This document shows, in pieces, positions 2,374 through 60,326 of a stretch of 64,000 nucleotides of DNA. Both the position numbers and the translations under genes were made by a program. The notes under the pieces are model-generated. The model searched no databases. It had not been told where the DNA came from and worked only from the letters and a program-made list of their open reading frames with translations. Numbering within the stretch: the first letter of the stretch is position 1; each line of letters starts with the position of its first letter. The stretch comes from Bacillota bacterium (GTDB lineage Bacteria; Bacillota; Sulfobacillia; JACIYH01): assembly GCA_014360055.1 (NCBI GenBank), contig JACIYH010000002.1, positions 38,673-102,672 on the forward strand. Direction: 5' to 3'.

Positions 2374-2401
2374 GCCGCGGGCGGGGGCAGGGGGGATAAG
2401 C

Positions 2402-7725: not shown

Positions 7726-7777
7726 TGCCCTTCCTGGCCGTCGGGTCGACCGGTGCCGCCCGGGGGAAGGCTCCCTG

Positions 7778-24182: not shown

Positions 24183-24266
24183 CGGTGGGGATTGGGGGTG
24201 GCCAACCCCGGCTTTTTTGCGTTACCTTGTGAAGGGTGTAACTGACACAGCGGGAGGGGTGGTTTG

Positions 24267-28654: not shown

Positions 28655-28956
28655 AGGAGCCTCCCGAACCCAGTTTCGAAGAAGCCCTCGCCCAGCTGGA
28701 GAGCATCGTGCGCACCCTGGAGCAGGGCAACACCGGCCTGGAGGAATCGCTCCGGCTGTTCGAGGAAGGCACCAGGCTCCTCGGCCTCTGCCACCGTCGC
28801 CTGGACGAAGCCGAGGGCCGGGTGGCCAAACTGATAAGGGGGGAAGGAGGGGATGTGCGCGAGGAACCCTGGGCGGAAGGACATGGAAGCAGCCCGGATG
28901 ATGCGGGATTGGCTGGCCCGGGTGGAGCAGCGCCTGGGGGAGGTCCTGCCCGGTGA
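28651..28956 (+). CDS. xseB: exodeoxyribonuclease VII small subunit (C-terminal Gly/Pro extension)
   Basis: EPSFEEALAQLESIVRTLEQGNTGLEESLRLFEEGTRLLGLCHRRLDEAE; the 3' end overlaps the ispA start. Confidence 0.88.
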   Translation: MKEPPEPSFEEALAQLESIVRTLEQGNTGLEESLRLFEEGTRLLGLCHRRLDEAEGRVAKLIRGEGGDVREEPWAEGHGSSPDDAGLAGPGGAAPGGGPAR

Positions 28957-29719
28957 AGGCGGGCAGCCCCGGGAACTGCACGCCGCCATGCGCTATGCCG
29001 TCTTTCCGGGAGGAAAGCGGCTGCGACCCCTGCTGGTGATGGCCGCTGCCCACCTGGGGGAAAGGGCGCCCGAGGCGGTGGACGCCGCCTGCGCGGTGGA
29101 ACTGGTGCACTCCTATTCCCTCGTGCACGACGACCTGCCCTGCATGGACGACGACGACCTGCGCCGGGGGCGCCCGTCCTGTCACCGCGTCTTCGGTCAG
29201 GTGGTGGCCCTCCTGGCCGGAAATGCCCTCCTCTCCCTCGCCTTCGAGGTGCTCGCCTCCTATCCGGGAGATCTCGGCTGCCAGCTGGTGCGCGAGTTGT
29301 CCCGGGCCTGCGGTCCCCAGGGGCTGGCGGGAGGGCAGGTGGGAGATCTCCTCTGGGAGGTCAACGAGGAGAACTACCTGTTCGTCATTGGGGCCAAGAC
29401 GGCCGCCCTCTTCCGGGCCTCCCTGCGCATGGGCGGGCTGGTGGCCGGGCTTGACCCCGCCACCATGGCCGTGCTGGATCGCTGCGGCCTCCACCTGGGG
29501 ATGGCATTTCAGATCAGGGATGACCTGGCGGATCGGCCGGCTGGGGAGGGTCCGGTGGGCATGAACGCGCTGGCGGTATGGGGCGAAGAGGGTGCGCGCG
29601 CCCGCGCGCGTGAAGAAGCGCGCGCGTTGGCCGATGCCGTGCGCTCGTTGGGCGTGAGAAACTCCATGCTGCAGCATATCGCCGAACTGGCGGTCGGCTC
29701 CGACCCGCAGCCTATTTGA
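28853..29719 (+). CDS. ispA: farnesyl diphosphate synthase
   Basis: LVHDDLPCMDDDDLRRGRP (first DDxxD) and FQIRDDLAD (second); start could be 28853, 28883 or 28898. Confidence 0.9.
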   Translation: MCARNPGRKDMEAARMMRDWLARVEQRLGEVLPGEGGQPRELHAAMRYAVFPGGKRLRPLLVMAAAHLGERAPEAVDAACAVELVHSYSLVHDDLPCMDDDDLRRGRPSCHRVFGQVVALLAGNALLSLAFEVLASYPGDLGCQLVRELSRACGPQGLAGGQVGDLLWEVNEENYLFVIGAKTAALFRASLRMGGLVAGLDPATMAVLDRCGLHLGMAFQIRDDLADRPAGEGPVGMNALAVWGEEGARARAREEARALADAVRSLGVRNSMLQHIAELAVGSDPQPI

Positions 29720-30343
29720 TTGGCGGGTGCAGCCGTGTTATATTGATGGTGCACAACTTTTGCGGCAGGTGGCGCAGTATCCTAGTCGGTGCCCCCATCT
29801 CTGAAGACGGGCCTAAAAATCCGTCGCGGGCACATCGATGAAGCCCCTGGTTCTGGCTTGTGACGCCCAGTCGTGGGCCGGGGCTGGGGGAATGGGGAAG
29901 GGGCGATCTACAACGGCATGTAGGCGTAGACCCTATCCCCGCGGAGGCCCGGGTACGCAGGTGAACTCTGCGGCCCGGGGACGACCTGCATTCGGCCGGC
30001 AAGCTGGGTGCAGTGTAGCCCGCCTTGAGTGGGCGGGGAGATGGCAGGTTCAGCTTCTTGCCGGTGGGCCCGCCGGCGGAAGCGGTGCTGCCCGAAACCC
30101 CGTCTGCAAAAGAGGCTAGGAGATGACGGGTGCTGTCGAGGAAAACTCCTAGGCTGTTTCCACCGGGGAGGCCGGGCGGGGATTGCAGTGTGTGCTCAGT
30201 GGTGATCCAGCGCCGTGGTGGGTGACGCCACGGGGCGGGACGTAAAGGGAAACCGCCCGGGCGGCGACGCCCGGGTGTCCCGTAGGGAAAGCCTGCTGGA
30301 CCTAAGCCACAACCTTTACCCGCCCGGTTGCCACCTGCCCACC

Positions 30344-32254
30344 ATGTATTATCCCCCCGAGGGCAGGGCCGTGGGACTGGAAGAGATCAGGGGTCCCCAT
30401 GATCTGAAAAGGCTGAGCGTCGCCGAACTGGAGAAGCTGGCGGAGGAACTCAGGAACCTCATCGTCGAGGTCACCTCGCGCACGGGTGGGCACGTGGGCC
30501 CCAGCCTGGGGGCGGTGGAACTGGCCCTGGCCGTCCATTCAGTTTTTTCGAGCCCGCAGGATGTCATCATATGGGACGTGGGGCATCAGGCGTACGCCCA
30601 CAAGATCCTTACGGGCAGGCGCGCCAGCTTCGATACCCTGCGCCAGCGGGGCGGCATTTCCGGGTATCCCGAGCGCAGCGAGTCGGAGCACGACCACTTC
30701 GGTACCGGCCATGCCTCCACCTCCGTGTCGGCCGCCATGGGGTTCGCCAAGGCCCGGGATCTGCGCCGGGAGACCCGGCAGGTGGTGGCCATCCTGGGGG
30801 ACGGGGCGCTGACGGGTGGGTTGGTCTACGAGGCCATGAACCACGCCGGCCAGGACCGCACCCACCTCATCGTCATCCTCAACGACAATTCCATGTCCAT
30901 TTCCCCCAACGTCGGTGCCCTGGCCCGCTATCTGGCCAGGGTGCGCTCGGCAGCCAGCTACCGGGGCGCCAAGGCACGCATCAAGAGAATCCTGGAACGC
31001 GTGAGCCCGGTGGACCTGGTGGGTGCCATCGAGCGCATCAAGGGCAGCATCAAGTACCTCCTTCTCCCGGGCGTGTTCTTCGAGGCGCTGGGGTTCACCT
31101 ACCTGGGCCCGGTGGACGGCCACGACATCACCGCCCTGCAGGAAGTGCTGCGGCAGGCCCGCGATCTGGACGGCCCCGTGCTGGTGCATGCGGTCACCCG
31201 CAAGGGGCGCGGGTACGAGCCGGCGGAGGCCGAGCCCGGCCTCTTCCACGGGCCGGGGCCGTTCGACCCCCGGACCGGGCGCCTCCACAGGGGCGACGGC
31301 ACCACCTGGAGCCAGGCCTTCGGCGCCATCGCCTGCGACCTGGCTGCCGCCGACCCCCGGGTGGTGGCCATTACGGCGGCCATGCGGGACGGCACGGGGC
31401 TTTCTGAGTTCGCGCGTCGCTTCCCCGACCGCTTCTTTGACGTGGGCATCGCCGAGGGCCATGCCGTCACTTTCGCCGCCGGCCTGGCCGCCGCCGGGAT
31501 GCGGCCCCTGGTGGCCATCTATTCCACGCTCCTGCAGCGGGCGTACGACCAGGTGGTGCACGATGTGGCGCGCCAGGGTCTACCGGTGGTGTTTTGCCTG
31601 GACCGGGCGGGAGTGGTGGGGGAAGACGGTTCCTCCCACCAGGGCCTGTACGACCTGGCCTACCTGCGCCACATCCCGGGCATGACCGTGGCCTGCCCCC
31701 GGGACGTGCCTGACCTGAGGGCCCTCCTCGAGCTGGGGCTGCGCATGGACGGCCCCCTGGCGGTACGCTACCCGCGGGCGGTGACGCCACCGGCGCTAAG
31801 TGGCGAGGGGCGCGGGCCCATCACCCGTGGCCGGGGTGAGTTGCTGCGCGCCGGGAGTGACGTCCTCCTCCTGGCCGTGGGCACCATGGTGGAGGTAGCC
31901 CTCGGGGCGGCCGGACTGCTGGAGAAAGAGGGTATCCGGGCTGCAGTGATCGACGCCCGCTTCGTCAAGCCCCTGGATGAAGCCCTGGTGCTGGCCTGGG
32001 CCGCCCGTACCGGTCACGTGGTCACGGTGGAAGAACACGTGTGCCAGGGGGGCTTCGGAAGCGCCGTGCTGGAGGCAATGGCGGCGGCCGGCCTGCGGGT
32101 GCCGGTGCAGGTGCTGGGGGTCCCGGACGAACACGTGGCCCATGGGTCCCGCCGGGAGTGGCTGGACCATTACCGGCTCACGCCGGCCGGAGTTGCGGAA
32201 GCCGCTCGCAGCCTCGTTTCGCACCGGCAGGCGGCGGCGGGCGGGGAGACCTGA
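30344..32254 (+). CDS. dxs: 1-deoxy-D-xylulose-5-phosphate synthase
   Basis: 636 aa from ATG 30344; TGGHVGPSLGAVELALAVH and GDGALTGG TPP motifs; in-frame part of ORF 30215..32254. Confidence 0.95.
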   Translation: MYYPPEGRAVGLEEIRGPHDLKRLSVAELEKLAEELRNLIVEVTSRTGGHVGPSLGAVELALAVHSVFSSPQDVIIWDVGHQAYAHKILTGRRASFDTLRQRGGISGYPERSESEHDHFGTGHASTSVSAAMGFAKARDLRRETRQVVAILGDGALTGGLVYEAMNHAGQDRTHLIVILNDNSMSISPNVGALARYLARVRSAASYRGAKARIKRILERVSPVDLVGAIERIKGSIKYLLLPGVFFEALGFTYLGPVDGHDITALQEVLRQARDLDGPVLVHAVTRKGRGYEPAEAEPGLFHGPGPFDPRTGRLHRGDGTTWSQAFGAIACDLAAADPRVVAITAAMRDGTGLSEFARRFPDRFFDVGIAEGHAVTFAAGLAAAGMRPLVAIYSTLLQRAYDQVVHDVARQGLPVVFCLDRAGVVGEDGSSHQGLYDLAYLRHIPGMTVACPRDVPDLRALLELGLRMDGPLAVRYPRAVTPPALSGEGRGPITRGRGELLRAGSDVLLLAVGTMVEVALGAAGLLEKEGIRAAVIDARFVKPLDEALVLAWAARTGHVVTVEEHVCQGGFGSAVLEAMAAAGLRVPVQVLGVPDEHVAHGSRREWLDHYRLTPAGVAEAARSLVSHRQAAAGGET

Positions 32255-35456: not shown

Positions 35457-36794
35457 GTGTCGAGACGCGCGTTGTTTTCTTTTAGCCGGTTCGCCCTGGC
35501 GCGAAGGGCCGTGCTGCTATGCATCTTCCTGTGCACGCTGGCCAGCTGGGCGGTTCGCCCCCTGGCCGAACTTCCGGCAGAACTCGAGTTGATGGCCGGC
35601 CAGCCCCACGACCTGCGCCTGCCCCCCGGCATCCAGGGGCACCTTGACCGCCCCGCGCAGGTGCAGTCTCGCACCAGCTACCCGGATCGGCTGACGGAAT
35701 GGCTGGCCGGAGGGGCACGGTTCACGCTCAGCCCCCAGGGGCAGGGCAAGGCCCGGCTCGAGTTCCGGTTGCTGGGCGTCCTTCCCGTGGGCTCGGTAAT
35801 GGTGAGCGTGCTACCCGACACCAGGATCATGGTCGGGGGACACTCCATCGGGGTGGTGGTGTCCAGCCGGGGCGTGCTGGTGACCGACATCAGACCGGTG
35901 CGTACCGCGGCAGGGCTGCGTTCCCCCGCCCAGGAGGCGGGCATCCTGCCGGGTGACCTCATCGTGAGCGCCGGTGGCGTTCCCGTGAGGGACGAAGAGG
36001 ACCTGGCCCGCCGGGTGGAGGAGGCGGGCAGGCAGGGCCAGCCCCTGCTGCTCGAGGTGGAAAGGGACCAGCGTACCTTCACGGTGAGAGTGGCACCGGT
36101 GGCCCTTCCCGACGGCAGCTTTCGCATCGGGCTGGCAGTGCGCGACAGCACGGCCGGCGTGGGTACCCTCACCATGTGGGATCCCACCACCATGCGTTTT
36201 TCCGCCCTGGGACACATGGTCACCGACGCCGACACCGGGCGGCCGGTGCAGCTGGACGAGGGGCGTATCGTGGCGGCGGGTATCCTGGCCGTGCACCAGG
36301 GCCGCAAGGGGCGGCCGGGGGAGAAGGTGGGCGTGTTCCTGCCCGAGCAGGACGTGCTGGGAAGGATCGAAAAAAACACCTCCTGCGGTATCGTGGGCCG
36401 GCTTGAGCGCCCCCTTTCCCACCCGCTCTACCGCGAAGCCATACCCCTGGCGGCAGCGGCCACCGTGCATGAAGGGCCGGCCGAGTTGCTCACGGTGGTG
36501 GACGGCCAGACCATAGAATCGTTCAGCGTCTTCATCCAGAAGGTATGGGCCGACCGGCGTTATGAGGGAAAGGGCCTGGTGGTGAGAATCACGGACCCCC
36601 GCCTCAAGCAGCGCACGGGGGGCATCGTACAGGGGATGAGCGGCAGTCCTCTCATCCAGGACGGTCGCCTGGTGGGAGCGGTCACCCACGTTTTCGTCAA
36701 CGATCCCAGCCGGGGTTATGGCGTGCTGGCACGGTGGATGTGGGAGGAAATGGTGGATGCAGCCACGGTGCGGGCGGGAGGAACAGTCCCCTGA
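35457..36794 (+). CDS. spoIVB: SpoIVB peptidase (S55), sporulation signalling protease with PDZ domain
   Basis: 445 aa; signal/TM then PDZ (ILPGDLIVSAGG) then serine peptidase domain. Confidence 0.9.
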   Translation: MSRRALFSFSRFALARRAVLLCIFLCTLASWAVRPLAELPAELELMAGQPHDLRLPPGIQGHLDRPAQVQSRTSYPDRLTEWLAGGARFTLSPQGQGKARLEFRLLGVLPVGSVMVSVLPDTRIMVGGHSIGVVVSSRGVLVTDIRPVRTAAGLRSPAQEAGILPGDLIVSAGGVPVRDEEDLARRVEEAGRQGQPLLLEVERDQRTFTVRVAPVALPDGSFRIGLAVRDSTAGVGTLTMWDPTTMRFSALGHMVTDADTGRPVQLDEGRIVAAGILAVHQGRKGRPGEKVGVFLPEQDVLGRIEKNTSCGIVGRLERPLSHPLYREAIPLAAAATVHEGPAELLTVVDGQTIESFSVFIQKVWADRRYEGKGLVVRITDPRLKQRTGGIVQGMSGSPLIQDGRLVGAVTHVFVNDPSRGYGVLARWMWEEMVDAATVRAGGTVP

Positions 36795-37020: not shown

Positions 37021-37779
37021 GTGGAAAAGGTCAAGGTGCTCATCGCCGACGACAACCGGGAATTATGTGACCTGTTGCGGGAGTACATAGACCAGCAAGA
37101 GGACCTGCAGGTGGTGCGCACCGTGCACAACGGCGCCCAGGTAATGGAGGCCCTCGAGGAGGCCAGGCCCGATGTGGTCCTGCTCGACATCATCATGCCC
37201 CACCTGGACGGGATCGGCGTCCTGGAGAGGATGGCGGAGTTGCCGCGCCGGCCCAAGGTGGTGGTGCTCACCGCCTTCGGCCACGAGCACGTGACGCGGC
37301 GGGCGGCCGAACTGGGGGCCGAGTACTGTGTGCTCAAGCCCTTCGACCTGGACGTGCTTGCCTGCCGCATCCGCGAGGTGGCCCGGGGTGCTCCCGCCCG
37401 CGCCGCCGCACCTCCCGTGCGTACGCGCAACCTGGACGCCGAAGTGACCTCGGTGATCCGCGAGGTGGGCATCCCGGCCCACATCCGGGGCTACAGTTAC
37501 CTGCGGGATGCCATCCTCATGGTGATCGAAGACATGGACCTCATCAACGCGGTGACCAAGAGCCTGTACCCCAGCATCGCCCAGAAGTACCGCACCACCC
37601 CCTCACGGGTTGAGCGCGCCATCCGGCACGCCATCGAGGTGGCGTGGAACCGGGGCAACCTGGAGGCAATTGAGCAGATGTTCGGGTACACGGTCAACCG
37701 CGACAAGGGTAAACCCACCAACGCCGAGTTCATCGCCATGGTTGCCGACCGCATGCGCGTGAGCCTGCGGGCGAGCTAG
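37021..37779 (+). CDS. spo0A: sporulation master response regulator Spo0A
   Basis: 252 aa; receiver domain with [10 protein letters not shown]; hallmark C-terminus ...[21 protein letters not shown]...[11 protein letters not shown]. Confidence 0.97.
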
Positions 37780-37930
37780 GCCCGGCCAAGCAGGGAAAGG
37801 GCGGGGGGGCGGAGAATATCATAGTCGTCCAGACGGCAGGAAGAGGAGCGGATGGGGTTTGCTCCTGATGCTGTTGCCCCTGGTCGCCGCGGTTGCGCCG
37901 GGGTCAGCATATACCACAGGCGCCGTTCCC

Positions 37931-37958
37931 CAAGGGGACGGCTTTAATTTTGGGCGGA
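37931..37958 (+). terminator. hairpin plus T-rich tract after spo0A, just upstream of the first leucine dehydrogenase RBS
   Basis: GCCGTTCCCC aa GGGGACGGC followed by TTTAATTTT. Confidence 0.45.
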
Positions 37959-37967
37959 GGTGGTGAT

Positions 37968-39050
37968 ATGGAGGTTTTTGCAGCCATGGCCCGGGACGGC
38001 CACGAGCAGCTGTGCTTTTGCCGCGAGCCCGTCTCCGGGCTGCGGGCGGTGATTGCCATCCACAACAGCACGCTCGGTCCTGCCCTGGGCGGCTGCCGCA
38101 TGTGGAAGTACGCGCGCGAAGAAGAGGCCATCCGCGACGCCCTCCGGCTGTCGCGCGGCATGACGGAGAAGAACACCGCCGCCGGGCTCAACTACGGCGG
38201 GGGAAAGTGTGTCATCTGGGGTGATCCCGCTCGGGATAAGAGCGAGGCGCTCTTCCGCGCCCTGGGGCGCTTCGTGGAGGGTTTCCGCGGTCGCTTCATC
38301 ACCGGCACCGATGTGGGCACCGTCTCTTCCGACTTCGTGTGGGCCTCCACGGAGACCCTCTACGTGGTGGCCCTGCCCGAGGAATACGGTGGCAGTGGCG
38401 ATACCTCGGTGACGACGGCATTTGCGGTGTGGAAGGGGATGAAGGCGTGCGCCCGCGTCGCCTTCGGCGACGATTCCCTGCGCGGGAGGACGGTGGCCCT
38501 CCAGGGGGTGGGCAAGGTGGGGGCACACCTGGCGCAGCACCTCCACGAAGAAGGGGCCTCCCTGGTGGCGTGCGATGCCAATCCCGACCGGCTGGAGGAG
38601 GTGGCCGCCCGCATCCCCCTGCGCAAAGTGGACCCGGAGGAGATTTTCGACGTCGAGTGTGACATCTTCTCTCCCAACGCCCTCGGCGGAGTGCTGAACG
38701 ACCTCACGGTGCCGCGCCTGCGCTGCCGGGTGGTGGCGGGGGCGGCCAACAACCAGTTGGAGGAACTGCGCCACGGCGACATGCTCAAGGAGCGGGGCAT
38801 CCTCTATGCCCCCGACTTCATCATCAACGCCGGAGGTGTGATCCAGGCGGCGGACGAACTGGAGGGCTACAACCGGGACCGGGCCCTGCGCAAGGCCGCG
38901 GGGATCTACGACCAGCTGCTGGAGGTGTTCCGCATCGCCGCCGAGCAGGATATCTCCCCGGCGCGGGCCGCGTACGTTTACGTGGAACGGAGGCTGCGTT
39001 CCCTGGGGGCCCTGGGGCGCATCCTGGTGCCCCGGGGCGCATCAGACTGA
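37968..39050 (+). CDS. Leu/Val/Phe (Glu/Leu/Phe/Val family) dehydrogenase, paralog 1
   Basis: MEVFAAMARDGHEQLCF...GGCRMWKY...GGGK; ATG with RBS GGCGGAGGTGGTG; in-frame part of ORF 37893..39050. Confidence 0.9.
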   Translation: MEVFAAMARDGHEQLCFCREPVSGLRAVIAIHNSTLGPALGGCRMWKYAREEEAIRDALRLSRGMTEKNTAAGLNYGGGKCVIWGDPARDKSEALFRALGRFVEGFRGRFITGTDVGTVSSDFVWASTETLYVVALPEEYGGSGDTSVTTAFAVWKGMKACARVAFGDDSLRGRTVALQGVGKVGAHLAQHLHEEGASLVACDANPDRLEEVAARIPLRKVDPEEIFDVECDIFSPNALGGVLNDLTVPRLRCRVVAGAANNQLEELRHGDMLKERGILYAPDFIINAGGVIQAADELEGYNRDRALRKAAGIYDQLLEVFRIAAEQDISPARAAYVYVERRLRSLGALGRILVPRGASD

Positions 39051-39062: not shown

Positions 39063-40133
39063 GTGGAAGTATTCAGTTCCATGGACCAGTACGACCACGA
39101 GCAGGTGGTGTTCTGCTACGATGAGGCGTCAGGCCTGAAGAGCATCATTGCCATCCACGACACTTCCCTGGGCCCCGCCCTGGGTGGTTGCCGGATGTGG
39201 CCCTACCGCAGCGAAGAGGAGGCCCTCTGGGACGTGCTGCGCCTCTCCCGGGGGATGACTTATAAGAACGCCGCCATGGGACTGAACCTGGGGGGCGGCA
39301 AGGCGGTCATCCTGGGGGACCCGCGCCGGGATAAGAGCGAGATCCTGCTCAGGGCCTTCGGTCGTTTCGTACACACCCTGGGAGGGCGCTACATCACCGC
39401 CGAGGACGTGGGCACCACCGTGCAGGACATGGCCGTGGTGCGCTATGAAACCCCCTACGTGGCCGGGCTGCTCGAGAAGTCCGGCGACCCCTCCCCCGCC
39501 ACCGCCTTCGGGGTGTGGAGGGGGATCAAGGCGTGCGCCCGCTGGGTGTGGGGGTCCGAATCCCTGCGCGGCCGTACGGTGGCCGTGCAGGGGGTGGGCA
39601 AGGTGGGGTCGGCGCTGGCCCGCCACCTGAGGGATGAGGGTGCTCACCTGGTGATCACCGACGTTGACTCCGAGCGCGCGCAGGGGGTGGGCCGCGAACT
39701 GGGGGCGGAGGTGGTGGAACCAGAGGCCATCTACGACGTCCCCTGCGACATTTTCTCCCCCTGTGCCCTGGGGGCGGTGGTGAACGATGATACCCTGAAG
39801 AGGTTCCGCTGCAAGGTGATCGCCGGGGCGGCCAACAACCAGCTGGCCGAACCCCGCCACGGTCACGCCCTCGAGGAACTGGGCATCCTGTACGCACCCG
39901 ATTTCGTCATCAACGGCGGTGGGGTTACCAACGTGGCCGACGAATTCGAGGAGGGCGGGTACAACCGGGACCGGGCCTTTGCGCGCATCGCCACCATCTA
40001 CGACAAGCTGTGGCGCATCTTTACGGTGGCGCGGGAGGAGAAGATCCCCACCTTCCTTGCCGCCGACCGCGTGGCCGAGGAGCGCATCGCTACCATCCGC
40101 CGGCTGCACCGCATCTACCTTCCGGGGCGGTGA
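39063..40133 (+). CDS. Leu/Val/Phe (Glu/Leu/Phe/Val family) dehydrogenase, paralog 2 (tandem)
   Basis: MEVFSSMDQYDHEQVVF...GGCRMWPY...; colinear with paralog 1. Confidence 0.9.
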   Translation: MEVFSSMDQYDHEQVVFCYDEASGLKSIIAIHDTSLGPALGGCRMWPYRSEEEALWDVLRLSRGMTYKNAAMGLNLGGGKAVILGDPRRDKSEILLRAFGRFVHTLGGRYITAEDVGTTVQDMAVVRYETPYVAGLLEKSGDPSPATAFGVWRGIKACARWVWGSESLRGRTVAVQGVGKVGSALARHLRDEGAHLVITDVDSERAQGVGRELGAEVVEPEAIYDVPCDIFSPCALGAVVNDDTLKRFRCKVIAGAANNQLAEPRHGHALEELGILYAPDFVINGGGVTNVADEFEEGGYNRDRAFARIATIYDKLWRIFTVAREEKIPTFLAADRVAEERIATIRRLHRIYLPGR

Positions 40134-40136: not shown

Positions 40137-40796
40137 ATGGCGGGCGAGCGGGTCACGGTACTCTACGGCCCGTACGGCAGCGGCAAGACCGAGGTCGCGG
40201 TGAACTACGCCGTTTGGCTGGCCGGCCGGGCGGCGGGGGTATGGCTGGCCGACCTGGATCTGGTCACCCCCTACTTCCGGGTGCGTGACCTCCGCGATCG
40301 GGTGGGCCGGCAGGGGGTGAGGGTGGTGGCCCCGGAAGGACCCCCGGGAGAGGGGGACCTCCCCGTGCTGCCCCCCGGTCTGAGCGGGCTCCTGCGCGGC
40401 GACGGGCCGGGCGTCATAGATGTGGGAGGGGGAGACACGGGGGCACGGGTGCTGGGTACCCTCCATACGCTTGCGGGGGACTGCCGCTTGTGGCTGGTGT
40501 TCAACCCCTACCGGCCCGGCTGCAACTCCCCCGCGGGGCTGGTGGACACGGCCCGCCGCATCTCGGCGAGCAGCCGGCTCGGGCCTGCCGGCGTGGTGTC
40601 AAACCCGCACCTGGGTCCCGCCACCACCGTCGCGGTGGTGGCGCGGGGACACGCGGTGGTGGAGCAGGCGGCGGCAAGGCTGGGACTGCCCGTGGTGCTG
40701 CTTACGGCGTTACAGGACATCGCGCCCGCGGTGGAGAAAATGGTGGGCCGGGAAGTATTCCCTCTGCAGCGGTACCTCACGCTACCGTGGGAATGA
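40137..40796 (+). CDS. P-loop NTPase of unknown function (Walker A GPYGSGKT, DxxG-like IDVGGGDTG)
   Basis: 219 aa; ATG directly after the paralog-2 stop; immediately upstream of the oxidoreductase delta-subunit ferredoxin gene in the same frame. Confidence 0.65.
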   Translation: MAGERVTVLYGPYGSGKTEVAVNYAVWLAGRAAGVWLADLDLVTPYFRVRDLRDRVGRQGVRVVAPEGPPGEGDLPVLPPGLSGLLRGDGPGVIDVGGGDTGARVLGTLHTLAGDCRLWLVFNPYRPGCNSPAGLVDTARRISASSRLGPAGVVSNPHLGPATTVAVVARGHAVVEQAAARLGLPVVLLTALQDIAPAVEKMVGREVFPLQRYLTLPWE

Positions 40797-40817
40797 GGTC
40801 CGGGGGAGGCGGTAACT

Positions 40818-41027
40818 ACGGAAAAGAAGGTCGTCTTCGCGGAGGAGAGGTGCAAGGCCTGTGAGCTGTGCGTGCATTTCTGCCCGCAGAAGATCATCCG
40901 GCTGGCTCCCGACCGCATGAACCCGTCCGGGTATCATCCGGCCGAGGTGGTTGAGCAGGAACGGTGTACCAGTTGTCGCATATGCGCGCTCATGTGTCCC
41001 GACGTGGTCATCGAGGTTTACCGGTGA
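40818..41027 (+). CDS. 2-oxoacid:ferredoxin oxidoreductase delta subunit (2x[4Fe-4S] ferredoxin); no canonical start codon, putative ACG start
   Basis: Frame-0 translation (T)EKKVVFAEERCKACELCVHFCPQKIIRLAPDRMNPSGYHPAEVVEQERCTSCRICALMCPDVVIEVYR* has two CxxCxxCxxxCP motifs; GGGGGAGG lies 8 nt before ACG 40818; no ATG/GTG/TTG in frame between the upstream stop (40794-40796) and the first Cys. Confidence 0.6.
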   Translation, partial: TEKKVVFAEERCKACELCVHFCPQKIIRLAPDRMNPSGYHPAEVVEQERCTSCRICALMCPDVVIEVYR

Positions 41028-41036
41028 GGGGGTGGG

Positions 41037-42110
41037 ATGGTGGCGGAGCTATCGCTGATGAAGGGTAACGAGGCCATCGCGGAGGCCGCCATCCGCGCCG
41101 GCTGCCGCTTCTACGCAGGCTATCCCATCACCCCGCAGAACGAGCTCTGCGAGTACATGGCCAGGCGCATGCCGGAGGTGGGCGGTACCTTCATCCAGTC
41201 GGAGTCGGAGGTGGCCGCCATCAACATGGTGTACGGGGCGGGTGCGGCGGGGGCGCGCGCCATGACCTCGTCTTCGTCGCCGGGGATCAGCCTCAAGCAG
41301 GAGGGGATTTCCTACCTCTGCGGCTCCGAGGTCCCGGGGGTGATCGTCAACATGGTGCGAGGCGGGCCAGGCCTGGGCAGCATCCAGCCCGCCCAATCGG
41401 ATTACTTCCAGGCCACCCGCGGAGGAGGGCACGGGGACTACCGCACCATCGTGCTGGGGCCGGGCAGCATACAGGAGGCGGTGGAGTTGACCATGCTCGC
41501 CTTCGAGCTGGCCGACCGCTACCGCAACCCGGTGGTGATCCTGGGAGACGGCATGATGGGGCAGATGATGGAACCGGTTCAGTTCCCGGACGGCCCGCCG
41601 CCGCAGCCGCCCGCCAAGCCCTGGGCCACCACGGGTACCCGCGGGCGGGGCAGCCCCAACATCATCAACTCTCTCTACATCGAAGCGGAACGCTGCGAGC
41701 GCCACAACCAGCGCCTGCAGGAAAAATACCGGCGCATGGAGGAAAACGAGCCGCGCTACGAACTGGTCAATCCGGAGGCGGAGTACTTCCTGGTCGCCTA
41801 CGGGACCAGTTCCCGCATCTGCCGGGCGGTGGTGGGCCGGGCCTCCCGCGATGGCCTGCGGGTGGGAATGATACGGCCCATCACCCTGTGGCCCTTCCCC
41901 CGCGCCGCCTTCGACCGGGTGGTGGAGCGGGCGCGGGCCTTCCTCACCGTGGAGATGTCCGCCGGCCAGATGGTGGAGGATGTGCGGCTGGCGGTGGAGG
42001 GGCGGCGTCCGGTGCACTTCTACGGGCGCACGGGGGGTGTGGTACCCACACCCCAGGAAGTGCTGGCCCGCCTGAAGCTCGTCGTGGAAGGCCGGGGGGG
42101 TGAGTCCTGA
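41037..42110 (+). CDS. 2-oxoacid:ferredoxin oxidoreductase alpha subunit (probably VOR or KOR)
   Basis: 357 aa; MVAELSLMKGNEAIAEAAIRAGCRFYAGYPITPQNEL... Confidence 0.92.
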   Translation: MVAELSLMKGNEAIAEAAIRAGCRFYAGYPITPQNELCEYMARRMPEVGGTFIQSESEVAAINMVYGAGAAGARAMTSSSSPGISLKQEGISYLCGSEVPGVIVNMVRGGPGLGSIQPAQSDYFQATRGGGHGDYRTIVLGPGSIQEAVELTMLAFELADRYRNPVVILGDGMMGQMMEPVQFPDGPPPQPPAKPWATTGTRGRGSPNIINSLYIEAERCERHNQRLQEKYRRMEENEPRYELVNPEAEYFLVAYGTSSRICRAVVGRASRDGLRVGMIRPITLWPFPRAAFDRVVERARAFLTVEMSAGQMVEDVRLAVEGRRPVHFYGRTGGVVPTPQEVLARLKLVVEGRGGES

Positions 42111-42859
42111 TGCAACGCATCTTCGGTCGACCGGCGGCGCTGACCGGTATCCCCTTCCACTACTGCCCCGGGTGCCCCCACGGCATCGTGCACCGGCTGG
42201 TGGCCGAGTGCCTTGACGAACTTGGGGTGTGCGAGCGGGCGGTGGGGATCGCCCCCGTGGGCTGCGCCGTGTTCGCCTACAACTACTTCAACTGCGACAT
42301 GATCCAGGCCGCCCACGGGCGCGCCCCGGCGGTGGCCACCGGTGTAAAGCGGGTGCAGCCCGATGCGGTGGTGTTCACCTACCAGGGGGACGGCGACCTG
42401 GCCGCCATCGGCACCGCGGAAATCGTGCACGCGGCCACGCGCGGGGAACGGATCACGGTGGTGTTCATCAACAACGCCATCTACGGCATGACGGGCGGCC
42501 AGATGGCGCCGACCACCCTGGTGGGACAGGAGACCACCACCACCCCCCGGGGCCGGGACGCCTCCTACCACGGGCACCCGGTGCGGGTTTCGGAGATGCT
42601 GGCCCTGCTGGACGGGGCCGCGTATGTGGCCCGGGTTTCCGTGCACGCTCCCGGCCACGTCAACCGGGCCAAGCGGGCCCTGCGCCGGGCCTTCGAGGTA
42701 CAACTGGAGAACCGGGGCTTCTCCCTGGTGGAAGTGGTATCCGCCTGCCCCACCAACTGGGGCATGACCCCGGTGGAGGCCCTGCGCTGGGTGGAGCAGA
42801 ACATGCTGCCCTACTACCGCCTGGGCGAGTTCAAGGTACCCGGGCAGGGGGAGGCCTGA
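42110..42859 (+). CDS. 2-oxoacid:ferredoxin oxidoreductase beta subunit (TPP-binding)
   Basis: 249 aa; CPGCPHG and GDGDLAAIG TPP motifs; ATG overlaps the alpha-subunit stop. Confidence 0.92.
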   Translation: MQRIFGRPAALTGIPFHYCPGCPHGIVHRLVAECLDELGVCERAVGIAPVGCAVFAYNYFNCDMIQAAHGRAPAVATGVKRVQPDAVVFTYQGDGDLAAIGTAEIVHAATRGERITVVFINNAIYGMTGGQMAPTTLVGQETTTTPRGRDASYHGHPVRVSEMLALLDGAAYVARVSVHAPGHVNRAKRALRRAFEVQLENRGFSLVEVVSACPTNWGMTPVEALRWVEQNMLPYYRLGEFKVPGQGEA

Positions 42860-42862
42860 ACC

Positions 42863-43405
42863 GTGCTGCACGAGGTGCTCATGGCCGGGTTCGGCGGCCA
42901 GGGCGTGATGGCCATGGGTTCCCTGCTGGCCTATGCAGCGATGCTGGAGGGCCGCCACGTCTCCTGGCTCCCCTCCTACGGCCCGGAGATGCGGGGGGGT
43001 ACGGCCAACTGCCACGTGGTCATCTCCGACGAGCCGGTGGCCTGTCCCCTGGTGACCGAGCCCACCGCGGCCATAGTACTGAACCGTCCCTCCCTGGACC
43101 GCTTCGAGAACAGCGTGCGCCCGGGAGGCATCCTCATCTATAACTCATCCCTCATCGACCGGGCGCCCACCCGCACCGACGTACGGGTGGTGGCCGTGCC
43201 CGCCAACCGGATAGCGGAGGAACTGGGTTCCGCGCGGGTGGCCAACATGGTATGCCTGGGGACGTTCCTGGCCCTCACGGGGGCGGTATCGGCCTCGTCG
43301 GTGTCCCAGTCCCTGCGCAAGGCCCTGCCCGTGCACCGCCACGACCTCATCCCCCTCAACGAGGCAGCCCTCGAACGGGGCGCGCAACTCGCCCGCGCCG
43401 GTTGA
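42863..43405 (+). CDS. 2-oxoacid:ferredoxin oxidoreductase gamma subunit
   Basis: 180 aa; MLHEVLMAGFGGQGVMAMGSLLAYAAMLEG... Confidence 0.9.
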   Translation: MLHEVLMAGFGGQGVMAMGSLLAYAAMLEGRHVSWLPSYGPEMRGGTANCHVVISDEPVACPLVTEPTAAIVLNRPSLDRFENSVRPGGILIYNSSLIDRAPTRTDVRVVAVPANRIAEELGSARVANMVCLGTFLALTGAVSASSVSQSLRKALPVHRHDLIPLNEAALERGAQLARAG

Positions 43406-43463: not shown

Positions 43464-44198
43464 GTGGAAGAGCAGCCGCGCCGCATCATCACGGTGGAAG
43501 AGGTGGAGGACCTCATCCGGCGCCTGCCGGCGGTGCAGGCCGTGCGGGTGGTGGTGTCCGACTGGGGGGCCATCGAAGAAATCCACGTCCTGGCGGGCAA
43601 CGAACGTCCCGCCAAGCAAATCGTGCGCGACGTGGAGTCCTCCCTGATGGCCCGCTGGGGTCTGCTGATAGATCACAAGTGCATAAGCGTAGCCCAACTC
43701 GTCCCCCGGGAGCCGCCTCCCTTGTCCCTTCGCGTCCGTCTGATGGACGTCCAGATACTGAACGACAACATCCGGCACCTTTGCCAGGTGTGGGTGCGGC
43801 TGGGCCTGCTTGACCCCGCCAGTGGCGAGGCGGTTTTCACCTGTGAGGGGACGGGGGAGGGCGGGGAGATGCCCCAGGCCATCTGGTTCGCGGCCGCCAC
43901 TGCCACCATGAATGCCCTGAACGAACTGACCGATCCCGGCTGGGAATTCGCGTGTCAGGGGGTAAGCTGTGTGGAGGTGGGCGGGGAGCAGGTGGCGGTG
44001 GTATCGGTGGGCGTGATCACCCCCCGGGGCGACGAGGAGAGCCTGGCGGGGGCAGCGGTGGTGCGGGGAGAACGGGTGGAAGCCTTCGTGAAGGCCGCCC
44101 TGGCCGCCGTCAACCGCCGTCTGGGGAAAGCCTGTGCCCAGCGGTCGCGCCGCCTGTGGGCCGAGGTGGAGGAAAGGAGCGAAGTCGGTGATGGCTGA
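43464..44198 (+). CDS. hypothetical conserved protein, 244 aa
   Basis: GTG with RBS GGGGAGGAG; no family recognised from the sequence. Confidence 0.55.
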   Translation: MEEQPRRIITVEEVEDLIRRLPAVQAVRVVVSDWGAIEEIHVLAGNERPAKQIVRDVESSLMARWGLLIDHKCISVAQLVPREPPPLSLRVRLMDVQILNDNIRHLCQVWVRLGLLDPASGEAVFTCEGTGEGGEMPQAIWFAAATATMNALNELTDPGWEFACQGVSCVEVGGEQVAVVSVGVITPRGDEESLAGAAVVRGERVEAFVKAALAAVNRRLGKACAQRSRRLWAEVEERSEVGDG

Positions 44199-56579: not shown

Positions 56580-56606
56580 TAGGGGGTCCGCCTGTCGCAC
56601 CCCCTA
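56580..56606. terminator. hairpin between the convergent rubrerythrin and cPGS-like genes
   Basis: TAGGGGGT ccgcctgtcgc ACCCCCTA. Confidence 0.45.
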
Positions 56607-57956
56607 CCTTTTGGCGCCCAGGGGGGTGCCGGCGAGGTGCGCCTCCACGAAGGCCCGCACCACGTCCCCCAGGTCCGGCCTGCCTATCTCCTGTAGTTCG
56701 TACCGTACCCGCAGGGAGGGCTTGTCGATGGTCACCAGCCGCCCCAGGTCGATGGGGGTGGCCACCACCACCAGGTCGGCCGGGGTAGCGTTGATGGTCG
56801 CCTCCAGTTCGTGCACCTGCTGAGGGCTGTAGCCCATGGCGGGCAACACCCGCTCCAGGTGCGGATACCGGCGGTACACCTCGCGGATGCTGCCTTCCGC
56901 ATAGGGCCGCGGGTCGACCAGTTCTGCCGCCCCCCACCGCCGCGCGGCCAGCGTGCCCGCCCCGTAGGGCATCTCGCCGTGGGTCACCGTGGGCCCGTCC
57001 TCGACCACCAGCACGCGGCGACCGCGCACCCGGGCGGAATCCTCGGCAAAGATGGGGGAGGCGGCCTCGATGATGAGGGCGTCGGGGTTGAGGCTGGCCA
57101 CGTTGTCCCGCACCGCCAGCACGTCCTCGGGGCGGGCGGTATCAACCTTGTTGATCACCACCGCGTGCGCCCGGCGCACGTTGGTCTCCCCCGGATGGTA
57201 GGAGATCTCGTGGCCGGCGCGGTGGGGATCCACCACACACACCAGGTAGTCCGGGTAGAAGAAGGGGAGGTCGTTGTTGCCCCCGTCCCAGAGGACAACG
57301 TCGGCTTCTTCCTCGGCCGCCTGCAGGATGCGCCCGTAGTCGGCACCAGCGTATACGATGGCGCCCCGGTCCAGGTGAGGCTCGTACTCTTCCCTCTCCT
57401 CGATGGTGCAACCCTGCTCGTCCAGGTCGCGGTAGGAAGCGAAACGCTGGCACACCTGCCGGCGCAGGTCACCATAGGGCATGGGGTGACGGACCACCAC
57501 CACCCGGTAGCCGGCCTCCCGCAGCAGGCCGACGAGGCGGCGGGAGGTCTGACTCTTGCCGGAGCCCGTGCGGGCAGCCACCACCGCCAGCACGGGACGC
57601 CGGCTGCGCAGCATGGTGCGGTCCGGCCCCAGCAGCCAGAAGTCGGCCCCGCAGGCCAGTACCAGCGAGGCCCGGTGCATCACGTACTGGTGACTGACGT
57701 CGCTGTACGAGAACACCACAGCGTCGGCCGCCAGTTCCCTGATGAGACGGGGGAGTTCGTCCTCGGGATAGATGGGGATGCCCTCGGGGTACAGTTCCCC
57801 CGCCAGTTCGGGCGGATAAGTACGGTTGGCGATGTCGGGAATCTGGGTGGCGGTGAACGCCACCACGCGATAGCGGGGGTCGCGGCGGAAGACGGTGTTG
57901 AAATCGTGGAAGTCGCGACCCGCTGCCCCCATGATGATGACCCTGGTCGGTGGCAC
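56604..57956 (-). CDS. cyclic 2,3-diphosphoglycerate synthetase (cPGS)-like P-loop protein
   Basis: Minus-strand ORF trimmed to GTG 57956 (RBS GGGAGGGAG); VIIMGAAGRDFHDFN..., Walker A AARTGSGKSQT, CTIEEREEYEPH, WDGGNND all match the cPGS family pattern; the only credible minus-strand gene in the window. Confidence 0.7.
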   Translation of the reverse strand: MPPTRVIIMGAAGRDFHDFNTVFRRDPRYRVVAFTATQIPDIANRTYPPELAGELYPEGIPIYPEDELPRLIRELAADAVVFSYSDVSHQYVMHRASLVLACGADFWLLGPDRTMLRSRRPVLAVVAARTGSGKSQTSRRLVGLLREAGYRVVVVRHPMPYGDLRRQVCQRFASYRDLDEQGCTIEEREEYEPHLDRGAIVYAGADYGRILQAAEEEADVVLWDGGNNDLPFFYPDYLVCVVDPHRAGHEISYHPGETNVRRAHAVVINKVDTARPEDVLAVRDNVASLNPDALIIEAASPIFAEDSARVRGRRVLVVEDGPTVTHGEMPYGAGTLAARRWGAAELVDPRPYAEGSIREVYRRYPHLERVLPAMGYSPQQVHELEATINATPADLVVVATPIDLGRLVTIDKPSLRVRYELQEIGRPDLGDVVRAFVEAHLAGTPLGAKR

Positions 57957-58107
57957 GCTTTCTCCCTCCCTAGACTTTATGCAACACTGTATATGCACTG
58001 CCCGTATGATTCTCCCGTTCCCTCCCTGTTTCCTTCTGCACGGCAGGGCGGTCACGCATAGGGAAGGGGAAGGGCGCGGAGAATAGCGCGCGGAGGGAAG
58101 ACGGCAC

Positions 58108-58458
58108 GTGCAGGTACTGGTGGCCTTCCTGGTCGGGGGCTGCCTGTGCGCCCTCGCCCAACTGGTGCTGGACATCGCCAAACTCCAGCCCGCCCACGTC
58201 ATGGTGCTCTTCGTCACCCTGGGCGCCGTGGCCAGCGGGTTAGGGCTGTACGGTTCCCTGGTACGGGTGGCAGGCGCGGGCGCCAGCATCCCGCTGGCAG
58301 GGTTCGGCCACGTGCTGGTACAGGGTATCGCCGAGGACGTAGCCACCAGGGGCGCCATCGGCCTGTTCACGGGCGGGTTCCGGGCTGCCTCTCTGGCCCT
58401 CAGCGCTGCGGTATTCTTCGCCTGGCTGATGAGCGTGCTGTTCAACCCCCGGGGTTAG
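58108..58458 (+). CDS. spoVAE: stage V sporulation protein AE (SpoVAEB-type membrane protein)
   Basis: 116 aa; MQVLVAFLVGGCLCALAQLVLDIAKL... Confidence 0.88.
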   Translation: MQVLVAFLVGGCLCALAQLVLDIAKLQPAHVMVLFVTLGAVASGLGLYGSLVRVAGAGASIPLAGFGHVLVQGIAEDVATRGAIGLFTGGFRAASLALSAAVFFAWLMSVLFNPRG

Positions 58459-60268: not shown

Positions 60269-60326
60269 AGGGGAGCAGGGTCACCTTTGGGTGCCTTCCT
60301 CCCTTGCCGTGAAGGGGGAAGGTGCT

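Follow-up and report, generated by a model that had tools for sequence, protein, structure and literature searches.

Gene content and chromosomal setting

The module lies in an uncultured Bacillota genome, 3' of the gene for the sporulation regulator Spo0A (37021-37779, + strand; TIGR02875, 377 bits), within the 64 kb stretch of DNA that was analysed, referred to here as the window. Tightly packed on the + strand, spo0A is followed by two ELFV-family dehydrogenases, a P-loop NTPase, and the delta, alpha, beta, and gamma subunits of a 2-oxoacid:ferredoxin oxidoreductase (OFOR). Open reading frames and profile matches recovered all of the genes named in the preliminary description, although the span it gave (40137-43405) takes in the NTPase and oxidoreductase genes and leaves out the two dehydrogenases, which lie just upstream. 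The best explanation of the arrangement includes a single co-directional operon running from dehydrogenase 1 to gamma. The module is preceded by dxs-nadK-argR-recN-spoIVB-spo0A and followed by nudix-spoIIM-ald-xerD. Immediately after gamma is a conserved hypothetical protein of 244 aa without a family match (43464-44198, + strand), with homologues at 36-74% identity in six related loci (L001, L003, L005, L013, L018, and L046) and none in the non-Bacillota loci that were compared. Because it follows gamma only in spore-forming relatives, this protein is probably part of the sporulation-region backbone rather than a member of the module.

The Bacillus subtilis bkd operon (ptb-bcd-buk-lpdV-bkdAA-bkdAB-bkdB) shares this neighbourhood (recN-spoIVB-spo0A ... 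nudF-spoIIM-xerD), the first enzyme, as bcd encodes leucine dehydrogenase, and the class of product, branched acyl-CoA. Its E1-E2-E3 complex relies on lipoamide and NAD, and the operon includes ptb, buk, and BkdR with sigma-54, whereas the module would use TPP and Fe-S with ferredoxin and lacks ptb, buk, and BkdR. In the original comparison ptb directly followed spo0A in B. subtilis; the wider synteny from dxs to xerD holds, but yqiG, the mmg operon, and bkdR presumably intervene between those two genes. Within the 64 kb window, tblastn returned no ptb or buk homologue and a Pfam scan of the long ORFs no E1 or E2 domain, in agreement with the absence first reported. A single Lpd-like gene (10126-12018) lies beside glycine-cleavage (gcv) genes 27 kb upstream of the module, and the full gene set of a bkd operon of the Bacillus kind (ptb, buk, and the E1 alpha, E1 beta, E2, and E3 components) is not present in the window. 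The module would be an anaerobe's counterpart of the bkd operon, occupying the equivalent position beside spo0A. In Sporomusa, buk-NTPase is retained at this position. The module had been said to replace the bkd operon, which presupposes a direction of change; the VOR version occupies this place in many anaerobic Bacillota, and an exchange of VOR for the BCKDH complex in aerobic bacilli is no less likely.

A putative promoter and a structured leader precede the operon

A candidate sigma-H-type promoter (37790-37817, + strand) consists of a -35 box GCAGGGAAA (37790-37798), a 12-nt spacer, and a -10 box GGAGAAT (37811-37817). Both boxes are kept in L001, and the spacer between them is wholly different. 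The consensus used is what we take to be that of sigma-H, and the promoter is offered as a lead only. The sole GG-N-GC candidate for a sigma-54 promoter has 11-nt rather than 10-nt spacing, and no such promoter was found. A terminator scan, alignment with L001, and folding delimited a conserved structured leader (37826-37955, + strand), which shares conserved blocks with L001, has a minimum free energy of -60.1 kcal/mol (z = -2.28), and adopts a consensus structure of three hairpins with one compensatory pair. At its 3' end the scan identified a terminator-like hairpin (37922-37942) followed by a T-run, 25 nt 5' of the dehydrogenase 1 ATG. The leader had no match in Rfam.

Two leucine-dehydrogenase-type genes with different pockets

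Dehydrogenase 1 (37968-39050, + strand; Pfam ELFV_dehydrog_N and ELFV_dehydrog) is a leucine-dehydrogenase-like protein of 360 aa (426 bits to the leucine dehydrogenase 6acf) in which the side-chain pocket is altered and enlarged. The ATG at 37968 is its true start, in keeping with the 360-aa protein of relatives, and a TTG at 37893 was rejected. In 1LEH numbering its pocket reads L40, G113, T114, V291, Q293, and A294, which departs from the aliphatic leucine dehydrogenase pocket (L40, A113, V291, V294), and the G113/T114/Q293 signature is common to 7 orthologues. Gly113 and Ala294 presumably enlarge the pocket as they do in phenylalanine dehydrogenase. Dehydrogenase 2 (39063-40133, + strand; 356 aa) retains the full leucine dehydrogenase pocket (L40, K68, K80, A113, D115, V291, V294) and matches 6acf with 487 bits and 1leh with 463 bits. 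The catalytic K80, the carboxylate-binding K68, D115, and the GGGK loop are present in both enzymes, and on pocket residues and structure-sequence matches only dehydrogenase 2 is predicted to be a canonical leucine dehydrogenase. The two genes had been described as tandem paralogs. They are paralogues side by side, but ancient ones with different substrate pockets rather than a recent local duplication, representing two old classes found on either side of buk-ptb in relatives.

The oxidoreductase is of the VorB type

The alpha subunit (41037-42110, + strand; 357 aa) contains domains I and II (POR_N, PF01855, 169 bits; PFOR_II, PF17147, 81 bits) and belongs to the VorB subfamily, scoring 546 bits against NCBIfam NF005507 (cut-off 399). 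The runner-up model, PRK08659, gave 320 bits, below its cut-off of 411, and the KOR, POR, and IOR models were far weaker. The GenBank record already names this protein VorB. The beta subunit (42110-42859, + strand; 249 aa) is the TPP-binding component (TPP_enzyme_C, PF02775, 80 bits), and its translation includes GDGD...FINN along with Cys19, Cys22, Cys52, and Cys213 for the proximal [4Fe-4S] cluster. GenBank labels it '2-oxoglutarate oxidoreductase'; its KorB-type NCBIfam matches all fall under their cut-offs, and among solved structures it is closest to the beta subunits of 8ys5 and 6n2n. The gamma subunit (42863-43405, + strand; 180 aa) provides domain III (PF01558 POR, 151 bits).

VorB-type activity on branched-chain 2-oxoacids is the best reading of the oxidoreductase, as suggested by its family and by its context in relatives. 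Its alpha falls in the same NCBIfam subfamily (NF005507) as that of Methanothermobacter VorABC, which we take to be the source of the VorB name; in the methanogen enzyme beta and gamma are fused and it works anabolically. We regard it as unlikely that the oxidoreductase is instead an arylpyruvate, broad-range, or 2-oxoglutarate enzyme with dehydrogenase 1 as a Phe-type or bulky-amino-acid feeder. The closest solved structures are 2-oxoglutarate-type (KOR-type) enzymes, and the enlarged pocket of dehydrogenase 1 also points that way. Further support comes from HpdDEFG of Clostridium scatologenes, a hydroxyphenylpyruvate:ferredoxin oxidoreductase of the VOR-like sequence cluster that is specific for hydroxyphenylpyruvate (PMC13285125). 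Compared by description, HpdDEFG resembles the module in having four separate subunits ordered delta-alpha-beta-gamma, and has adjacent ptb-like and buk-like genes as in the operons of the module's relatives, but it acts on aromatic substrates and lies beside HPA decarboxylase genes (PMC13285125). Against an enzyme of this kind, alpha is above the VorB cut-off and the KOR, POR, and IOR models give it much lower scores, dehydrogenase 2 has the canonical leucine dehydrogenase pocket, and isobutyrate, isovalerate, and propionate are the preferred substrates of the kinases beside the C. difficile and C. sporogenes VORs, which belong to the same sequence cluster (PMC13285125).

A branched-chain amino acid route that has lost ptb and buk

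It is probable that the operon combines two leucine-dehydrogenase-type enzymes with a VorB-type oxidoreductase for the conversion of branched-chain amino acids to acyl-CoA, with the NTPase as a partner. The NAD-dependent dehydrogenases would deaminate Leu, Ile, and Val to 2-oxoacids, with dehydrogenase 1 probably accepting bulkier side chains, and the four-subunit oxidoreductase would then use CoA, TPP, and three [4Fe-4S] clusters in a reversible reaction yielding branched acyl-CoA, CO2, and reduced ferredoxin. The ferredoxin-linked route proposed in the preliminary description is upheld by the VorB score of 546 bits, the leucine dehydrogenase pocket, and the presence of ptb and buk in relatives. 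L001 has an identical gene order (NTPase identity 67%), L003, L005, L013, and L018 have the order LeuDH-buk-ptb-LeuDH-(buk)-NTPase-delta-alpha-beta-gamma, and operons with the NTPase at 44-45% identity have LeuDH, buk, and ptb around an NTPase-delta-alpha-beta-gamma core. Relatives whose operon includes ptb and buk would obtain ATP and release branched-chain fatty acids. In the host lineage both genes appear to have been lost at this locus from between the two dehydrogenase genes, and the acyl-CoA would more likely be used to prime iso/anteiso fatty acids or by an unlinked enzyme.

In clostridia, VOR together with ptb and buk makes up the oxidative branch of Stickland metabolism, which is well established (PMC6384274, PMC6110889, PMC13285125). 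Like the module, that branch (C. difficile vorCBA with ptb/buk; C. sporogenes VOR) takes 2-oxoacids to acyl-CoA and reduced ferredoxin through a four-part enzyme with the D+E+F+G subunit layout. The module differs in that deamination would take place within the operon, by two NAD-linked leucine dehydrogenase paralogues, in that the locus has neither ptb nor buk, and in the NTPase gene before delta, which these three papers do not mention. Since alpha passes the VorB model and the relatives' operon contains ptb and buk, the module corresponds to the known anaerobic LeuDH-VOR-ptb-buk route minus ptb and buk; the pathway is not new and the module is ordinary.

It seems improbable that the module works in the biosynthetic direction known from methanogens and rumen bacteria, in which reductive carboxylation of branched acyl-CoA is followed by amination to give Val, Leu, and Ile. 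The reaction is reversible, and the NTPase family is present in Ruminococcus flavefaciens (L075), which requires branched-chain fatty acids, both of which count in favour of this direction. However, activation of external fatty acids would require ptb and buk, neither of which is present at the locus, and leucine dehydrogenases are typically catabolic. The precedent on the biosynthetic side is the Methanobacterium VOR, which has been proposed to run in reverse (PMC13285125).

A one-nucleotide insertion separates delta from its start codon

The NTPase and delta genes had been described as tightly packed in the same frame. They do share a frame here, split by the TGA at 40794-40796, but this is the result of a frameshift lesion specific to this genome, a 1-nt insertion, and not a design. 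The ferredoxin-like body of delta (40797-41027, + strand; 2x[4Fe-4S]; Fer4 family and OorD/PorD_KorD matches) contains two CxxCxxCxxxCP motifs, and no ATG, GTG, or TTG is found upstream of the first Cys motif in the delta frame. Seven close relatives were aligned at the delta start (L087-L091, L177, and L178); in these, the ATG of a 77-aa delta overlaps the NTPase stop (ATGA) and delta is in a different frame from the NTPase. The ancestral ATG recognised from these alignments (40793-40795) is still present, overlapping the NTPase stop, but now opens a dead-end frame of 23 codons (40793-40864, + strand). A run of five G (40802-40806, + strand) stands where the seven relatives have four, and this +1 insertion is the sole 1-nt indel across 10.3 kb at 99.1% identity to a relative. 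It is also found in contig L176, which was assembled separately. The extra G parts delta from its ATG, and GenBank consequently lists a truncated product (MBC7338337.1; 40866-41027, 53 aa, CTG start) that retains 6 of 8 Cys, with two cluster ligands missing.

With delta cut off from its start codon, the oxidoreductase of this genome may be impaired or only leakily expressed. More remotely, delta might still be produced if a +1 slip occurs on GGGGG, or if read-through of the TGA joins it to the NTPase as a fusion. Given the frameshift, the operon may not be functional in this genome, and there is a small chance that the frameshift is real and inactivating and that the operon is becoming a pseudogene cluster. 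The extra G in two assemblies, the loss of a canonical start before the first Cys motif, a product short of two cluster ligands, and the earlier loss of ptb and buk are all consistent with decay. On the other hand, both assemblies may derive from a single set of reads, the rest of the module is intact, and 10 kb at 99% identity to relatives with an intact delta contain no further indel that breaks a frame. The lesion also falls in a non-conserved N-terminal extension of delta that is absent from L001, and a +1 slip on the G run would restore exactly the sequence of the relatives.

The NTPase belongs to an undescribed SIMIBI family

The NTPase (40137-40796, + strand; 219 aa) is assigned by motifs and fold to an undescribed SIMIBI family, and it had no match in Pfam or NCBIfam, in line with its initial description as uncharacterised and SIMIBI-like. 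Its motifs are a Walker A GPYGSGKTE, DLDLVTPYFR, DVGGGDTGARV, NPYRP, and a C-terminal LPWE, and it has the Walker A GxxGxGK[ST], Walker B-like hhhhDxxG, and SRP/MinD-like parallel-sheet fold of SIMIBI proteins. The fold is without a close relative; the top structural matches are SRP-family GTPases, with sequence similarity to solved structures limited to the P-loop region. The family comprises about 1,100 to 3,000 clusters, and some members have faint PF01656 or PF10609 matches. Placement in the MinD/ParA/Mrp/NifH group was rejected, as the signature-lysine position (KGGxGK[ST]) is variable (P, L, N, G, H, A, R), as was placement with SRP/FtsY/FlhF or G3E, as there is no [NT]KxD, the equivalent segment is N123-x-x-R126-P127, and the Cys/His metal site of G3E is lacking. 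Unlike the SIMIBI accessory NTPases of metalloenzymes (CooC, HypB and Mrp-type HypB, UreG, NifH, ApbC/Nbp35), the protein has neither the signature lysine of the deviant Walker A nor a CxxC, CxCC, or CPH metal/cluster motif. No conserved Cys or His was found in the family alignment, which suggests that it is neither a cluster carrier nor an electron-transfer ATPase.

Linkage of the NTPase to VorB-type oxidoreductases

Co-occurrence of the NTPase and the oxidoreductase was a check proposed at the outset. The NTPase gene is directly upstream of the delta/VOR genes in 72 of 77 informative genomes from about ten phyla, but it is absent from 35 of 64 informative VorB-type operons chosen by alpha. 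With roughly half of such operons lacking it, the NTPase is not universal. Among the sampled operons no residue tells NTPase-bearing from NTPase-free VorB-type operons, and on a neighbour-joining tree of alpha and beta the NTPase-bearing state is ancestral, with about 9 changes. The NTPase is best explained as a partner that this clade of oxidoreductases conserves but can do without, and not as a redox or catalytic subunit. Most likely it would be an ATP-dependent assembly, maturation, or regulatory factor acting on the oxidoreductase complex. The more specific proposal that it founds a new SIMIBI family, as a dedicated ATP/GTP-dependent assembly/activation factor and "fifth gene" of VorB-type OFORs, is tentative, and we consider it possible but doubtful.

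It could also be that the NTPase is unrelated to the oxidoreductase, being general-purpose or having another target, and that its position is inherited gene order. NTPase-FolC fusions occur at the housekeeping valS-folC site, and other contexts without an OFOR place it beside ThiF and an acyltransferase, beside RsmF, or with buk alone. To these can be added the 35 operons without it and the related enzyme HpdDEFG, which was reconstituted in vitro from subunits made in Escherichia coli without any such NTPase (PMC13285125). We nevertheless judge an unrelated role to be unlikely, as the adjacency persists in 72 genomes while all other flanking genes differ, with the NTPase on the same strand, directly 5' of delta, and overlapping the delta start in close relatives. 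The NTPase is the sole unusual part of the module and its new element, and represents a moderately interesting lead. We know of no OFOR with a described maturation factor. If the NTPase is an assembly factor, the weakly bound subunit that it loads or docks might be beta or delta.

A probable branched-chain catabolic operon follows spo0A

G+C content is about 69% across the entire window, and from 35.4 to 48.1 kb every real gene lies on the + strand. The genes for SpoIVB (35457-36794, +; TIGR02860, 394 bits) and Spo0A (37021-37779, +; TIGR02875, 377 bits) are followed by two genes for proteins with ELFV domains, dehydrogenase 1 (DH1; 37968-39050, +) and dehydrogenase 2 (DH2; 39063-40133, +). 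Next come a gene for a 219-aa P-loop protein with no Pfam or NCBIfam match, referred to here as the NTPase (40137-40796, +), and the genes for four subunits of a 2-oxoacid:ferredoxin oxidoreductase (OFOR): delta (40797-41027, +; 2x[4Fe-4S] frame, Fer4 families), alpha (41037-42110, +; POR_N and PFOR_II), beta (42110-42859, +; TPP_enzyme_C), and gamma (42863-43405, +; POR). Intergenic gaps inside the module are -1 to 12 nt. The gene set that the preliminary description placed downstream of spo0A was confirmed, tightly packed on the + strand; the range given there covers the NTPase and oxidoreductase genes but leaves out both dehydrogenases. In the GenBank record (locus tags H5U04_), the NTPase is "hypothetical" and alpha is a "3-methyl-2-oxobutanoate dehydrogenase subunit VorB". 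A hypothetical protein of 244 aa (43464-44198, +), for which no domain match was found, is encoded after gamma here and in all spore-forming relatives (36-74% identity) and is missing from this position elsewhere among the phyla; it is probably part of the sporulation-region backbone. Next in the window are a Nudix gene, spoIIM, ald, and xerD.

On NCBIfam NF005507, the VorB subfamily model (cut-off 399 bits), alpha reaches 546 bits; its scores on the models for KOR, POR, IOR, and archaeal VOR are far lower and all below the cut-off. Beta, gamma, and delta match generic KorB/OorD-type models, each below its cut-off, and the closest solved structures to the oxidoreductase are 2-oxoglutarate-type enzymes (1yd7, 8ys5, and 6n2n). 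In translation, beta retains the GDGD...NN TPP motif and four Cys, and delta contains two CxxCxxCxxxCP motifs. A 2026 paper grouped four-subunit "cluster 3" OFORs with known VORs (PMC13285125). For the acyl kinases adjoining the cluster 3 OFORs of C. difficile and C. sporogenes, the preferred substrates are isobutyrate, isovalerate, and propionate, whereas HpdDEFG of the same cluster is hydroxyphenylpyruvate-specific (PMC13285125). The preliminary proposal of a branched-chain oxidoreductase is supported by the VorB-type alpha, and specificity for branched-chain substrates is likely, though short of proof. In a Planctomycetia locus, the alpha gene (L059, 1325-2374) is broken by a stop codon. 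The window also encodes an NfnAB/SudAB-like pair (24264-26509, +), consisting of a DHODB-type Fe-S subunit and a GltD-like Fer4_20/Pyr_redox_2 subunit, which fits a ferredoxin-based anaerobic metabolism.

The two dehydrogenases belong to separate classes

DH2 scores 487 and 463 bits against the leucine dehydrogenases 6acf and 1leh, respectively, and DH1 scores 426 and 386 bits; identity between DH1 and DH2 is 57%. Both contain K68, K80, and D115 (1LEH numbering is used throughout). The aliphatic pocket L40/A113/V291/V294 is kept in DH2 and all its orthologues, while G113, T114, and Q293 are common to DH1 and six orthologues, and DH1 of the window also has A294. Gly at the 113-equivalent position is the phenylalanine-dehydrogenase state and makes the pocket larger. 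In relatives, the order is DH1-buk-ptb-DH2, with both classes flanking buk and ptb; DH1 and DH2 are therefore old paralogues juxtaposed by loss of buk-ptb. They do form the adjacent pair noted earlier, but the position of the two classes in relatives rules out a recent local duplication as its origin.

The spacer between spo0A and DH1 (37790-37955, +) is conserved even in L001, a locus from a MAG whose NTPase is 67% identical to that of the window. It contains a candidate sigma-H-like -35/-10 pair, with a spacer between the boxes that is not conserved. Three hairpins follow, the last being a terminator-like stem (37922-37942) with a T-run only 25 nt ahead of the dehydrogenase ATG. The leader has a folding z of -2.28 and one compensatory pair, and no Rfam match was found. 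These features suggest that the leader works as an attenuator or like a riboswitch.

The slot after spo0A is conserved

Upstream of the module, the window contains gcv, M24 peptidase, spoIIIAA, accC, folD, xseA, ispA, dxs, nadK, argR, recN, spoIVB, and spo0A, in that order; the flanks are collinear with the spo0A region of B. subtilis. Gene order from recN to ald is identical in L001. Four loci at 44-45% NTPase identity (L003, L005, L013, and L018) read LeuDH-buk-ptb-LeuDH-(buk-like)-NTPase-delta-alpha-beta-gamma, and in L005 a sigma-54 activator precedes the operon and spoIIM, ald, and xerD follow it. In Sporomusa acidovorans DSM 3132 (L083, 2461-12042), the order is spoIVB-spo0A-buk-NTPase-nudix-TIGR00375-spoIIM-xerD-deoB, so that Negativicutes (L083 and L032) have buk-NTPase at this slot without VOR genes. 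The shared flanks and the Sporomusa buk-NTPase pair indicate that the slot is a long-standing site of branched-chain catabolism in Bacillota, and VOR may well be its older occupant.

LeuDH, VOR, ptb, and buk constitute a known route to branched-chain fatty acids and ATP (PMC6384274, PMC6110889). As the preliminary description stated, the window lacks part of it and the alternative complex as well: neither ptb nor buk occurs anywhere within the 64 kb, and no E1 or E2 was found among the scanned ORFs. Unlike in the B. subtilis bkd region, which has BkdR and sigma-54 promoter features, no BkdR was found upstream of the operon and no sigma-54 promoter, the sole candidate being a GG-N11-GC with the wrong spacing. 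Among the loci, only the L005/L006 type carries a sigma-54 activator. The module is a known type of pathway in a conserved position; this version has lost ptb and buk, and its delta start is damaged. As a pathway it represents textbook amino-acid catabolism of anaerobes, to which little is added, but the slot is a clean case of in-place gene displacement: anaerobes have VOR there, and aerobic bacilli have the BCKDH complex.

Several other elements were found in the window. A glycine riboswitch (3104-3253, +) lies upstream of gcvT, and downstream of gcvT/PA/PB a set of genes (7673-12018, +) comprises two radical-SAM genes (7673-8734 and 8638-9816), an LplA/LipB-type ligase gene (9801-10646, +), and an Lpd-like gene (630 aa, with an N-terminal extension of 160 aa). 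Together they resemble LipS1/LipS2-style lipoate assembly linked to the glycine cleavage system. A full-length ornate large extremophilic (OLE) RNA (29753-30350, +; 468 bits, model positions 1-616) is flanked by an ispA-like gene (28853-29719) and dxs (30215-32254), a location typical for anaerobic extremophile Bacillota. Between spoVA-region genes and gerA is a coding-like 613-aa ORF (56604-58445, -; GC3 0.85) with no Pfam match, and a lysine riboswitch (60083-60267, +) lies upstream of a diaminopimelate/ornithine decarboxylase-family gene (60249-61655).

An extra G displaces the delta start

Seven close relatives (L087-L091, L177, and L178; 87-99% nucleotide identity) encode a delta of 77 aa (MRSGEAVTTEKKVVF...) whose ATG shares bases with the NTPase stop (ATGA). 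At 40802-40806 the window reads GGGGG, one G more than the GGGG of these relatives, and a neighboring T-to-C change is separate and synonymous, as shown by L177. As a result, the ATG at 40793 opens a 23-codon dead end, and the delta body lies in the NTPase frame behind a TGA, with no ATG, GTG, or TTG before its first Cys motif. The truncated public annotation (MBC7338337.1), 53 aa from a CTG at 40866 and two Cys ligands short, is explained by this single insertion and calls for caution when metabolism is reconstructed from this MAG. A 3-nt in-frame indel in the N-terminus of SpoIVB (35486 region) distinguishes the window from L087.

The same insertion occurs in L176, a separately assembled contig (SRR11866716) that is 99.6% identical to the window (16 mismatches, 0 gaps) and on which no delta gene was called. 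This recurrence makes the insertion probably real in that population. An assembler-specific homopolymer error is not supported as the sole explanation, since the extra G is the lone 1-nt indel in 10.3 kb (99.1% identity) and is present in a second assembly, although both assemblies may derive from one read set. The lesion falls in an N-terminal extension of delta that is absent in L001. Speculatively, if tRNA-Gly slipped by +1 within the G run, the product would match the delta sequence of the relatives exactly. The same-frame packing of NTPase and delta pointed out earlier is present in the window but is caused by the insertion. Neither recoding of the TGA nor a designed fusion of NTPase and ferredoxin was kept as the default reading, given the other frame and ATGA overlap in the seven relatives, and no natural NTPase-Fer4 fusion was found among the 150 best family representatives.

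The NTPase represents an undescribed family linked to VOR operons

Word-indexed searches identified 73 homologues of the NTPase, almost all without a name, and a profile search identified 3033 clusters at 50% identity (1122 at E<=1e-30), mostly stand-alone proteins of 215-260 aa. The Walker A motif is invariant (G11-x2-G14-S-G16-K17-T-E), as are D39-x-D41-x3-P45-x2-R48, D95-x-G97-G98-x3-G102, N123-x2-R126-P, N156, and T163. AF2 models the protein with confidence (pLDDT 84.8, pTM 0.86), sequence similarity to solved structures ends past the P-loop region, and the MinD signature lysine and NKxD motif are both absent. It is therefore a SIMIBI-class protein outside every described family, in agreement with the preliminary description. 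Because the family alignment contains no conserved Cys (nor any conserved His), a role in carrying Fe-S clusters or as an electron-transfer ATPase, as for Mrp-, NifH-, or HgdC-like proteins, is ruled out.

When one genome per species was scanned, at least 594 carriers were recorded, and 80 loci were retained for analysis. By record title, these included Atribacterota, many Bacillota, Chloroflexota, Desulfobacterota, Myxococcota, Acidobacteriota, Thermotogota, Planctomycetota, Ignavibacteria, and others. VOR genes were directly downstream on the same strand in 72 of 77 informative loci (median HSP gap about 60 nt), and among the 80, buk lies just upstream in 24, while ptb is present in 21 and LeuDH in 9. 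Since buk and the NTPase coexist in those 24 loci, the NTPase is not a stand-in for buk. Within Desulfosarcina, the only further theme in common was an aminotransferase behind gamma. Co-occurrence, raised in the preliminary description, holds from the NTPase side but only in part from the other: among 80 metagenome loci chosen by alpha subunit, the NTPase was present in 29 and absent in 35, with 16 too short to judge. In a neighbor-joining tree of alpha and beta, the NTPase-bearing state is inferred as ancestral, with about nine changes and two larger clades without the NTPase. No residue separates NTPase-bearing from NTPase-less VorB-type operons, and no other gene takes its upstream place in the latter.

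The contexts of some family members are at odds with a role restricted to VOR. Four clusters located at the housekeeping valS-folC site, with no OFOR nearby, are FolC-NTPase fusions of about 670 aa (proteins P0114, P0119, P0129, and P0144; loci L092, L174, and L175), in which full-length FolC (Mur_ligase_M/C and FOL3_C) precedes the NTPase. One member lies between a ThiF-family E1-like gene and a PlsC-type acyltransferase without an OFOR (L030, 5232-7464), in a locus adjoining a type I CRISPR-Cas cluster; another locus reads unknown gene-NTPase-RsmF, and the buk-NTPase pair of Negativicutes is a further mismatch. Reconstitution of OFORs of this type is reported to be difficult, with beta weakly bound. 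Chemical reconstitution gave active HpdDEFG in the absence of any NTPase-like protein, although binding of its beta was weak (PMC13285125). The leading reading, at about even odds, is that the NTPase is a conserved, dispensable accessory protein in assembly, maturation, or regulation rather than a redox partner. That it is functionally unrelated to the oxidoreductase seems unlikely, and the remaining probability falls to other, unnamed roles.

Full-text literature searches returned no report of an OFOR-linked ATPase, and the NTPase family with its tight VorB-operon linkage is the sole feature of the module beyond existing family models and the searchable literature. Genes of this unmodelled family (about 1,100 clusters at E<=1e-30) immediately precede delta in VOR-type operons from about ten phyla, whose carriers are anaerobes of gut, rumen, digesters, and sediment. 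If the NTPase is a dedicated helper, it would be of practical use in OFOR expression, for example for CO2-fixing reverse reactions, and for work on gut branched-chain fatty acids.
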